From Eledone cirrhosa (taxonomy: Eukaryota): 64,000 nucleotides of DNA. A program made the translations under genes and the position numbers. Location: positions 87,420,001-87,484,000 of the forward strand of contig OZ024746.1 of the NCBI GenBank assembly GCA_964016885.1, read 5' to 3'. How positions within the stretch are numbered: the stretch's first letter is position 1; every line of letters starts with the position of its first letter. A model generated the notes under the pieces. It searched no databases. It saw nothing but the letters and a program-made list of their open reading frames with translations, and was not told where the DNA came from. This document shows positions 616 to 62,434 of this stretch, in pieces.

Positions 616-656
616 TCTTTTTTCTGATGAAGGACTAGCGCCCGAAACGTTAAGAC
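616..656 (+). ncRNA. Putative minimal type I hammerhead ribozyme (PLE-type)
   Basis: CTGATGA-A-GG(ACTAGCGC)CC-GAAA-CGT-TA; AACGTT palindrome over stem III; stem I weak. Confidence 0.5.
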
Positions 657-1100
657 ACACTTCCTTCTATTTCAAGTGTTAATCTAATATCTTCTTTCTA
701 TATATTGTACCGATTGTGTTGTTATTTCTGGTTACCTTTTACACACACACACACACACACACACATACCCACACACACACATACACACATACACACACAC
801 ACACACACATATATATATATATATTGATTAATGAACACATCCACATGTTTATGTAGTTGGTTAGAAACAGCTATAAAAGTGTCACACCTAAAATGTCCTA
901 CTTAATATAGACACCAACAAAGCATAATACAAGAAACGGCAAATATCTATTTATTGTCCTTCTACGACCTAAATACATGAGTCTGTCCCTCATTGTTCTT
1001 ATTACCTCGAACACTATTATATATATATATATATATATATATATATATATATATATATATATATATATATATATATATATATATATATATATATATATAT

Positions 1101-1282
1101 TAGAAAGTGAGGTTTTTTTTACAAAATGAAAAATAACCGAGGTGTCCTACACGAGTGAAAGTATAAAGAAAAACAGATGAAATCGGAAATTTGGTTCCTG
1201 TAAAGGAACCAAATAAATATATATGTATTTAAAAAAAAAATAAGACTCCAGTTGCATTTTCGATTTCATCTTTTTTTCTTTA
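1101..1282. mobile_element. Fold-back PLE 3'-end fragment (family B) in (TA)n
   Basis: Inverted arms around ATTTGGTTCCT-GTA-AAGGAACCAAAT; same sequence as 7018-7230, which carries an HHR. Confidence 0.7.
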
Positions 1283-1354
1283 TATATATATATATATATA
1301 TATATATATATATATATATATATATATATATATATATATATATATATATATATA

Positions 1355-1548
1355 CAGGAACGAGTAGGACCCCGACGGGTGAGCTCAAGCCGTTTCGACG
1401 GCTAATTCTGGACTCAGAATTAGCCGTCGAAACGGCTTGAGCTCAGCCGTCGCGGTCCTGCTCGTTCCTATTACCCACTCTACTACCTTAAGTATTGAGT
1501 ACTTTGGTGCGTTATCGTCCACCTGGTTCCTTACCACATTTCCTTCGT
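1355..1548. mobile_element. Fold-back PLE-derived mini-element (family A) in (TA)n
   Basis: Inverted arms centred ~1413; ~78-nt tail on one arm only; related copies at 10499, 20720, 26555, 43743, 46036, 63588. Confidence 0.75.
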
Positions 1549-1681
1549 TATATATATATATATATACATATATTAGGATACAGCAAGCAAATATTTTTAT
1601 AACTGATATAAAGCACTCTACTAGTATTGGGAGTAAAAATACGATATTAACAAATGGAAACTATATTTATAAAACCATATT

Positions 1682-60400: not shown

Positions 60401-60918
60401 CATCGGTGCTAAACGCATCGGAACGACTGAATATCATCCTGCCTCTAATGGAATGGTCGAGCGTTTCCACCGACAACTAAAAGCCGCGTTGGAGCGAGTA
60501 CCTCCCTATTGTGTTGTTGGGTATTCGCTCATCAATAAAGCAGGACCATGGGTTCTCCCCGGCCGAATTATTGTATGGTGCTCCTCTACCGTTGCCTGGG
60601 CAAATGCTTGCCCCTCTCGATCTTGCTGAACAAGATCCGCTTTCCTACGTATCCCGTCTGCGTTCTTATTTTTAGGACCTGTCGCCGATGGATATGAGGA
60701 AGCAAACTGTAAAATGTGCAGTCCCGAGGGATATTGCCTCGTGGACCCATGTGTTTTTGAGAATCGATGCCTTGAAACCACCTCTCACACAACCGTACTC
60801 TGAACCCTACACTGTGTTGTCTCGTTCTGATAAACATTTCACTCTAGACATTAAGGGATCCAGAGAGACCATTGCGGTTGATAGACTTAAACGGGCCCAC
60901 ACAGATGTTCACACTTGA
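57448..60918 (+). pseudogene. Gypsy gag-pol (frameshifted, gag partly deleted)
   Basis: CWYHATFADKAKHCWLPC (gag); FLGDTVAS and PILGADLL (PR); [26 protein letters not shown] (RT); VDASD, RELLA, YTDHKPL (RH); [31 protein letters not shown] (IN). Confidence 0.93.
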
Positions 60919-61328
60919 GCCACATACACCCCCATCTTTCTCTTTTGCCCACACACCTGTTTCTTTGTCCTCCCCCATCACCAAGATATAAGACTACGAC
61001 CCTTTCCGTTCGGAGGATTCATTGGCCCAACAAACTGTGTAGCATGGTATATTTTTTAACTGCTATTGTGCGGTGCTTTAATCCTGTAGTGACTTTTGGA
61101 ACTTTTAGGAAATTGTATTTACATTTTATTACATTTGTTTTGTTTTTTCCTTTCACGTTCTTGCATGCTTGCTCAATATGCATTTTGAAATTTGTTGTGC
61201 CTCTCATGCTCGGTTGGGCTGATTGCTCCTTGGTTTGGGATTTTTGCTGGTTGTTAATCTGTTTTTCTACATACATGATTCGATGAACCTATTTTTATTT
61301 AATTTTCTAAAAATCTGGTGGGAGACCA

Positions 61329-61709
61329 TGTAGAAGATCACGCCATCTAGCGTCGACTGTGAAGGCAGTCAATTAACTGCCCTTAGTTCTGGCGTCACGT
61401 TCTGACGTCAGTAGCTGAAACAATATTTATTAAACGATGATATCCTCGAAGAATATAGACGTGCTATCTCTATGGTGCTATCTACATGCAGTGATCCAAA
61501 GGATGACATCACACCATGCGGCAGTATATGACGACTTAAATATATTCCAACCTAAGAGCAGTAATGTATTTGTATATATTCCGTAATTGCTCCTATTAAA
61601 AATGTTTTTATAACATAAAATTGAGGTATGTTCCTTCTTCCTTGTTTGACTATGTGCCAGTTAACAATAACTATTAGACGGGATTACTGACGACCGTCTT
61701 CCGCCTAAA
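61329..61709 (+). repeat. 3' LTR
   Basis: TGTAGAAGATCACGCC...CCGCCTAAA, preceded by GGTGGGAGACCA. Confidence 0.95.
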
Positions 61710-62363
61710 TATATATATATATACACACACACACACTTACGAACGCAAACGCTCAAACGCACGCAAACTGACGCACGCACGTGTGCACGTACACACACAT
61801 CTTAATAGATTTAACTCTTACTGGAACGCTGTAAGAACACACACACTCCCGCGCTCGCGCACACACACGCACACATGTTAATTAGTTATAGTTTTCCTTA
61901 CCATCTTCCACTGTCATGTATCAAACACAGTGTCTGTCGCTCTCTCTCTATCTCTGTCACGCTATCCCCCTCTTTTAGTCTGTCTGTTTCTTCACTCTCA
62001 CTCTTTCTTTTTCATTTTTAGAGATATAGAGATTTTGTCTGTGCAAAGTCGTACCTATAGTCAGTTTTATCTACATTTTACCTGGACACAGGGGGACTCG
62101 ATCATTCCTAAAATCGTGCCGACCTGCCCTAATAAATTTCTGGTTGAATACAGAAACATTTTGAAAATCGGCCTTGCGGATCAAAGGTTGCTGCGGAACA
62201 GACACACATACACACACATACAGACAGACATTTTCATATATATATATATATATATATATATATATATATATATATATATATATATATATATATATATATA
62301 TATATATATATATATATATATATATAATATATGAGAACAAAAGATGGTTAAAGGAGTTCCATG

Positions 62364-62434
62364 TATTTTATTATGCGCATTTCAAAAACAAATATCATCA
62401 TGCAATAATATTTGTGTTTTCATCAGATAAAACA
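62364..62434 (-). ncRNA. Minimal hammerhead ribozyme (family E)
   Basis: TGTTTTAT-CTGATGA-...-GAAA-TGCGCA-TA-ATAAAATA; same family as 29353-29782. Confidence 0.8.

Follow-up and report, generated by a model that had tools for sequence, protein, structure and literature searches.

Introduction

Hammerhead ribozymes are known from the repeats of Penelope-like retroelements in a minimal form, in which positions 15.2-16.2 and loop 3 are palindromic, many families coexist within a genome and cleavage occurs only in dimers (Cervera and De la Pena 2014, PMC4209133). Covariation of U3 with A8 is described there and in PMC3088659, long and alternative palindromes are found in Fig. S8 of the latter (Perreault et al. 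2011), and the dimer model is repeated in two reviews (PMC6765202, PMC6466107). In one coral genome, 16 families coexist (PMC7229834). Here we analyze hammerhead-like motifs in 64 kb of the genome of Eledone cirrhosa (assembly GCA_964016885.1, 3.0 Gb; contig OZ024746.1, positions 87420001-87484000), the whole of which is hereafter called the window. Dimer-type hammerheads with varied palindromes are of an already published kind, and the window set is unusually rich. We consider it likely that these motifs are type I hammerheads in the terminal repeats of Penelope-like elements, left behind as truncated copies, whose palindromic helix III pairs two copies into a double hammerhead predicted to cut only when both element ends are present. 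The best reading of the palindromes, referred to below as words, is that they drift by compensatory change within a known dimer-cleavage device, and that incompatibility between families is a by-product.

The window motifs share with the minimal hammerheads of PMC4209133, for which dimer-dependent cleavage is described, a type I layout, an unstable palindromic helix III, the U3-A8 alternative, a multitude of families and an arrangement mostly as solo copies or as opposite-strand pairs 100-700 bp apart. They differ in their many words of 8-12 nt, in helix II inserts of up to ~100 nt and in amplified subfamilies with A13C or U4C states. A long self-complementary stem III-loop III segment, with which a 10-bp dimer helix is possible, is also typical of the repeat-type hammerheads of PMC3088659, where GCGC and GGCC alternatives occur within single species; the family-by-family analysis of compatibility and rate made here is absent in the compared parts of that paper. 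The Hydra clade (Craig et al. 2021, PMC8557442) is marked in section 11 of its description by DKT, RW, CxCX5C, CxxC and CxH, and resembles the present elements in these marks, in hammerhead carriage and in a preference for (TA)n insertion sites, although that section names neither a cephalopod-type host nor loop III diversity. Among the publications listed by literature searches, none dealt with cross-family compatibility of hammerhead words; Lunse et al. may cover this topic.

Results and discussion

The window has ~34% G+C and abundant dinucleotide repeats, and contains remnants of Penelope-like, helicase-bearing and long terminal repeat (LTR) elements. Motifs with both halves were catalogued by hand, and a structure scanner was run separately. 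The catalogue comprises 25 type I hammerhead-like motifs, 21 of which have the core C3UGANG8A (or its U3-A8 form), GAAA and UH in the order required of a type I hammerhead, while the remaining four carry core changes. Among these 21, the segment between A15.1 and U16.1 is self-complementary, as in dimer-type hammerheads, in 14 cases (12 perfect palindromes and two with G-U pairs) and imperfect in seven. Helices I and II vary in compensatory fashion across families, and several window copies have damaged helices. The scanner, which missed five catalogued sites and included about six doubtful ones, returned 23 hits in the window as compared with a mean of 1.32 and a maximum of 4 in 100 dinucleotide shuffles; for hits with a Watson-Crick or G-U word of at least 6 nt, the corresponding values were 12, 0.05 and 1. 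In a sample beyond the window (1.75 Mb in 33 blocks, with loci labelled L029, L238 and so on) there were 201 hits at a score of at least 14, and two in the reversed sequence. An Rfam search of the window (E values up to 1) gave 136 matches, none of them to a hammerhead family; a stable helix III is absent from these motifs.

A sequence-only reading of this DNA had proposed about 20 hammerheads, a number that the catalogue and the excess of scanner hits over shuffled sequence largely confirm, and all 15 words that it named are present where it placed them. The core that it gave, CTGANGA...GAAA, is literal at nine of these sites (616, 5351, 8674, 15872, 16866, 29482, 29675, 31790 and 62364). Four others have U3-A8 TTGANAA instead (7157, 34424, 40796 and 29931), with GCAA for GAAA in addition at 29931 and a damaged helix II at 40796. 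The last two are not canonical: 17270 reads CCGTCGA, and 11129 belongs to a 5'-truncated inverted pair without the first core half. The CTGATGA at 11055 is not a suitable core for 11129, because it cannot form helix II and the core of longer copies lies elsewhere. The AACGTT given for 616 reduces to a helix III word of only ACGT (A15.1-C-G-U16.1) in a loop-less minimal form, and the AG(A/G)ACT family at 3110, 13816, 14106 and 44199 had been omitted. The assignment to minimal or short-helix-III type I hammerheads of Penelope-like elements is supported by the motifs and by their links to open reading frames (ORFs).

These links were found in the window and in the sample. As expected of pseudo-LTRs, the direct or inverted repeats at element ends, motifs lie downstream of ORFs for reverse transcriptase and GIY-YIG in the case of ATGCGCAT, ACGATCGT, ACGTACGT, ACAATTGT, AG(A/G)ACT, ACGT and one ATATATAT copy. 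Among sampled copies, the distance past the ORF end was 201-286 nt for AG(A/G)ACT (8 of 21), 327-328 nt for ACGTACGT (2 of 2) and 1.0-1.3 kb for ATGCGCAT (2 of 18), and both ACAATTGT families adjoin ORFs in L238, L241, L243 and L246. At L029/L030, two ATGCGCAT motifs stand 3.94 kb apart in direct orientation with ORF sequence between them. By eye, the ORFs linked to ATGCGCAT, ACGATCGT, ACGTACGT and ACAATTGT contain DKT, RW, CxCX5C, CxxC and CxH, some partial ORFs being incomplete, and RW is RWR or RWI, not RWK; these ORFs appear to be of Hydra type by motif marks, not by tree placement. The AG(A/G)ACT ORFs have a CX4CxxC linker of Neptune or Nematis type. In Pfam searches, the Penelope-like remnants matched GIY-YIG only, below threshold. 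A (TA)6 run follows within 220 nt at all 13 window motifs tested as compared with 24% of random positions, and some element ends themselves contain TA runs. Genome-wide family sizes were taken as pattern matches, each pattern having 0 matches in a backwards control, and amount to 34,379 for the TTTAT/ATAAA clade, 18,154 for AG(A/G)ACT, 12,959 for ACCGGT, 5,773 for a short pattern spanning the two ACAATTGT families and 4,655 for a GCAA-type pattern. The motifs therein appear to be end-pieces of mostly broken Penelope-like elements, mostly Hydra-type, with tens of thousands of copies genome-wide.

In the sample we also observed type I hammerhead tandem arrays like those of non-LTR retrozymes (PMC7229834; bioRxiv 10.64898/2026.07.22.740005), with 310-bp units carrying the word ACGCGT and 470-580-bp units carrying ACTAGT (L031-L040 block 20839-23072; L121-L125, L126-L130 and L146-L150 blocks). 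The window, in contrast to these arrays, has mainly element ends that stand alone or in inverted orientation.

The palindrome as an RNA dimer interface was addressed by unconstrained cofolding of nine pairs of motifs, named here by a position inside the motif span. Homodimers of 29683 and of 31918 were predicted to fold as double hammerheads with an 8-bp intercopy helix III and with helix I swapped between copies, and 29683 with 62426 likewise gave a strand-swapped double hammerhead. The 7190 homodimer and the cross-family pair 15880 and 16872 gave a one-sided junction, and no double hammerhead was obtained for 29683 with either 15880 or 31918. Of 30 superfamilies, 27 have a Watson-Crick innermost word pair, a pair that a hairpin within one monomer could not contain (p ~1e-11 at 0.3, the superfamilies being not fully independent). 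In addition, ATATGTAT, which pairs with itself through G-U, has 7,185 copies genome-wide, as against ~48 copies of its A-C mirror ATACATAT (22 of the first 100 of 217 matches). Single mutants of ATGCGCAT, the control pair for decay after insertion, are symmetric (171 vs 147), as such decay would predict. CpG decay as the origin of ATATGTAT was rejected on the strand asymmetry against such symmetric controls, and ATACGCAT, a candidate A-C subfamily (4 of 100 listed matches), was rejected as being at the background level of 171 vs 147. The palindromes look selected for RNA-RNA pairing, to judge from these patterns. A-to-I editing was considered as a driver of word change, but tolerance of wobble is already enough for its direction. 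It is very improbable that the palindromes have no role in RNA and matter only in DNA, as protein sites or by-products of hairpins for example: although most copies are dead, as this explanation would allow, a DNA site would be strand-symmetric, whereas the G-U word stands ~150-fold above its mirror and the words occupy precisely the interval from A15.1 to U16.1 in a ribozyme core that covaries.

Under the dimer explanation, the 5' arm and core of each copy would act on the cleavage site of the other, with helix I and the word pairing between copies as the folding predicts. If an element is complete and in tandem, its ends would pair in cis on one transcript and release unit-length RNA, possibly with assistance from the protein of the element, and solo and inverted copies would stay uncut. 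Selection would keep the word self-complementary while allowing it to drift via G-U and compensatory steps; old families would therefore become incompatible as a by-product, and not by selection for a code.

How words behave within and between families bears directly on this point. Word tallies refer to 100 listed matches per pattern rather than to all genome-wide matches. The sequence-only reading expected the palindrome to be kept within families, and this is the case for ACCGGT, which is exact in 88 of 100; in the TTTAT clade 72 words are perfect, 23 contain G-U and 5 are mismatched. Its further claim that each family has a word of its own is not confirmed: even in its own list, two helix-II families share TATATA, two families without relationship share CAATTG, and CCGG is common to two subfamilies. 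Among 30 superfamilies, ATATATAT recurs in four, ACAATTGT in three, and ACCGGT, ACATATGT, ACATGT and AGAACT in two each, some of the sharing superfamilies being relatives. Conversely, ATATATAT and ATATGTAT are both present in each of two helix-II families, and ATATATAT, ATATGTAT, ATACGTAT and ATGCGCAT have all been found on one helix I.

Rates of change were compared over 29 sister links, with six rows dropped, nine merges made by eye and helices aligned ungapped. Changes affected 14 of 153 word sites (9%), with three length changes besides. Helix I had changed at 47 of 290 sites and helix II at 75 of 290, and the value for the flanks was 29%. The word was unchanged in 20 of the 29 links, and self-pairing was kept in all nine changed ones, a pattern that suggests stabilising selection with compensatory drift. 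Words had changed in 5 of 18 links with a nearly unchanged helix I and in 4 of 11 with a diverged helix I, and there is therefore no signal of displacement. Sister families with 12-nt words that differ by compensatory changes were seen as well, and one 13-nt word consists of a 12-nt palindrome with a bulged A (blocks from L041, L141, L186 and L191).

Compatibility was estimated from fixed-register energies for 42 units in 30 superfamilies, after three mis-registered representatives and all unsupported singletons had been dropped and one window copy had been swapped for a more intact one. Of 1,694 ordered pairs between superfamilies, 122 are compatible in helix I, 84 in the word and 13 in both. 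With words permuted, the last value becomes 6.6 +/- 4.2 at a tolerance of 1 kcal/mol, and at 2 kcal/mol the comparison is 17 vs 11.9 +/- 7.9, so that no depletion of compatible cross-family pairs is seen relative to permutation. Of 28 pairs within superfamilies, 22 match in helix I and only 10 in the word, and the word is therefore the discriminator among close kin. Where helix I is shared, ATGCGCAT and ATATATAT cross-pair at -0.9 to -1.7 kcal/mol (-14.6 and -7.3 with themselves), and ATATGTAT pairs energetically as well with ATATATAT as with itself. The model predicts that families are mostly insulated and that helix I does nearly as much of this as the word. Because helix I is strand-swapped in the dimer, any address would consist of helix I plus the word; the sequence-only reading, which had treated the word alone as the address, overlooked a helix that rejects partners about equally well.

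That reading had proposed that the palindromes form an orthogonal address code. In its selected form, helix I and the word would be driven apart between co-active families, so that kin-only processing avoids chimeric excision from motif-crowded host transcripts. The rarity of doubly compatible cross-pairs, the discrimination by the word among close kin and the weak pairing of ATGCGCAT with ATATATAT fit such a code, and most cross-family pairs are indeed predicted to be unable to form an active junction. Selection for orthogonality, however, is unsupported: words are common to unrelated families and change more slowly than helices and flanks, mostly staying the same between sisters without displacement, compatible cross-pairs are not depleted, and ATATGTAT does not distinguish ATATATAT from itself. 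Host purging of compatible same-strand pairs was also considered and not seen beyond 6 kb, where 17 same-family pairs are tandem and 8 opposite, a small and duplication-confounded set. The address code is not favoured by the sequence evidence, and in its selected form we regard it as unlikely. In a related proposal, Penelope-like RNAs would recognise their kin by a key of two parts, helix I and the palindrome; sister lineages would shift words via G-U intermediates until mutual processing fails, and the key would outlast decay of the core, like a retroviral dimerisation signal. This we find doubtful.

Core variants raise the question of whether cleavage is the primary function. GCAA replaces GAAA in 92 of 100 listed matches out of 4,655, giving an A13C subfamily of ~4,300 copies for a pattern that fixed the word; its helices I and II have changed in compensatory fashion, and ACCGGT is kept in sampled copies. 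In the two ACAATTGT families, CCGATGA or CCG(A/T)(A/C)GA is the family state of the core, with U4C throughout and A6U in addition in some (L239-L247 and L228-L238; window 17261-17356). Complementarity of the retroviral dimer-initiation palindrome is said to decide which RNA genomes pair, a result credited to Chin et al. 2005. The window words resemble this loop (Tran et al. 2015, PMC4588261) in that complementarity of a palindromic word would govern RNA pairing, but the likeness is an analogy only, the retroviral structure being a kissing loop for packaging and not a ribozyme helix. It is quite unlikely, in our view, that the word acts mainly as such a dimerisation signal for the ribonucleoprotein of the element, with cleavage secondary. 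Words are intact where the core has changed, as in the GCAA subfamily and in CCGATGA/CCGTCGA motifs with ACAATTGT, and in an anole element the hammerhead is assisted by protein and is not required for insertion in vitro, while the protein of the element is predicted to dimerise (PMC11167929). Contrarily, most families have a full core with C3-G8/U3-A8 covariation, and their helices vary in compensatory fashion; U4C occurs in nature as a variant known to be viable (PMC3088659), and Naiad elements have spread without canonical hammerheads (PMC8557442).

Several observations weigh against the explanation that we prefer, namely dimer cleavage by terminal-repeat hammerheads. In the AG(A/G)ACT family, none of 100 listed matches has a perfect palindrome, the words being only partly self-complementary, and cofolding of the 13816 homodimer and of 5356 with 16872 yielded no double hammerhead. 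One to three master lineages, and not thousands of events, underlie the G-U versus A-C asymmetry. No ORF end was found upstream of ACCGGT in 41 listed matches, some of which are one site in overlapping loci, and the copies have more than 1 kb of non-coding sequence in common; the ACTCGAGT family, with two copies only, likewise has no ORF link. Amplification of A13C, U4C and U4C+A6U subfamilies means that catalysis may be dispensable. Within 6 kb, same-family pairs are divergent in 45 cases, tandem in 35 (from about ten arrays) and convergent in none, and most close pairs are divergent inverted copies unable to share a strand. Finally, for the anole element of PMC11167929, the hammerhead depends on protein, insertion in vitro proceeds without the hammerhead and no RNA ends were seen at the cut site.

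Features of the window

The coordinates of the motifs and of the associated ORFs are collected in Table 1. A 234-bp tandem duplication at 31904-32371 contains the 5' half of the ACGATCGT motif twice, and further short Hydra-type ORF remnants lie at 28214-28453 (+) and 37962-38366 (+). A PIF1-like helicase remnant at 55831-56959 (-), with Pfam matches PF05970 and PF21530, is likely Helitron-derived. It is followed by an LTR retrotransposon remnant at 56950-61709, in which broken reverse transcriptase and integrase frames lie between 384-bp direct repeats of 94% identity (56950-57330 and 61328-61709). Other repeats have long inverted-repeat (foldback) structures (30087-31472, 46034-47144 and 20216-20606), and a tRNA-like match at 40633-40703 (-), 32.5 bits and above the Rfam gathering score, is probably the head of a short interspersed element.

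Table 1. Hammerhead-like motifs and Penelope-like ORF remnants in the window
Position	Strand	Feature	Remarks
616..659	+	loop-less minimal hammerhead, word ACGT	family downstream of Penelope-type ORF in 2/4 sampled copies
1682..1746	-	hammerhead, word ATATGTAT (G-U wobble)	TTTAT/ATAAA clade
3069..3118	-	hammerhead, word AGAACT (imperfect palindrome)	helix I weak; inverted 5' piece of 3266-4605 element
3266..4605		broken Penelope-like ORF, CX4CxxC linker, GIY-YIG remnant	inverted piece 3266-3632 (-), main piece 3634-4605 (+)
5348..5410	+	hammerhead, word ATATATAT	
7153..7198	-	hammerhead, U3-A8 core, word ACCGGT	12,959-match family
8670..8787	-	degenerate hammerhead, word ACTCGAGT	83-nt helix II region; 2 exact pattern matches genome-wide
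9228..9293	+	hammerhead, word mutated to ATTTATAT	
10896..11271		inverted pair of 5'-truncated ends, GAAA-CAATTG-TA	first core half missing; longer copies have CCGATGA core, after Hydra-type ORF
13774..13824	-	hammerhead, word AGGACT	
14098..14148	+	hammerhead, word mutated to AGGAAT	divergent partner of 13816
15872..15933	+	hammerhead, word ATATATAT	
16318..16367	+	degenerate hammerhead	helix III longer, non-palindromic
16671..16736	-	dead copy, core CTGATTA	inverted partner of 16872
16864..16929	+	hammerhead, word ATATATAT	helix II family unlike that of 5356 and 15880
17261..17356	-	core-variant motif CCGTCGA...GAAA, word ACAATTGT	helix I GTGT/ACAC; family after Hydra-type ORF in L238
21022..21100	-	degenerate U3-A8 hammerhead, word ACTGTAGT (G-U)	
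29482..29551	-	hammerhead, word ATGCGCAT	left arm of 355-bp inverted pair
29675..29745	+	hammerhead, word ATGCGCAT	right arm of same pair as 29482..29551
29927..29973	-	U3-A8 motif, GCAA for GAAA (A13C), word ACCGGT	state of ~4,300-copy subfamily
31791..31926	-	hammerhead, word ACGATCGT	101-nt helix II region; 961 nt downstream of Hydra-type ORF remnant
32879..34291	-	broken Hydra-type Penelope-like ORF: reverse transcriptase end, CxCX5C linker, GIY-YIG	74-87% identity to intact-reading ORF in sample
34421..34467	-	U3-A8 hammerhead, word ACGTACGT	sampled copies 327-328 nt past Hydra-type ORF end
40792..40837	+	U3-A8 hammerhead, word ACCGGT	helix II damaged
44157..44207	-	dead AG(A/G)ACT-family copy, core CTTAAGA	
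44729..45298	-	two tandem degenerate hammerheads, word ACCGCACT	cores 44807 and 45290; sole other genomic match has word ACTGCGGT
62364..62434	-	hammerhead, word ATGCGCAT	

Conclusions

In this genome, word swaps, wobble intermediates and core variants occur naturally across dozens of families, and a clean comparison of homodimers with heterodimers is therefore readily designed. Pairing specificity, if it limits cross-processing, would account for the presence of many families at about one motif per several kb without cutting of host RNAs. If the kin-key reading were true, it would amount to reproductive isolation between transposon families, written in RNA.

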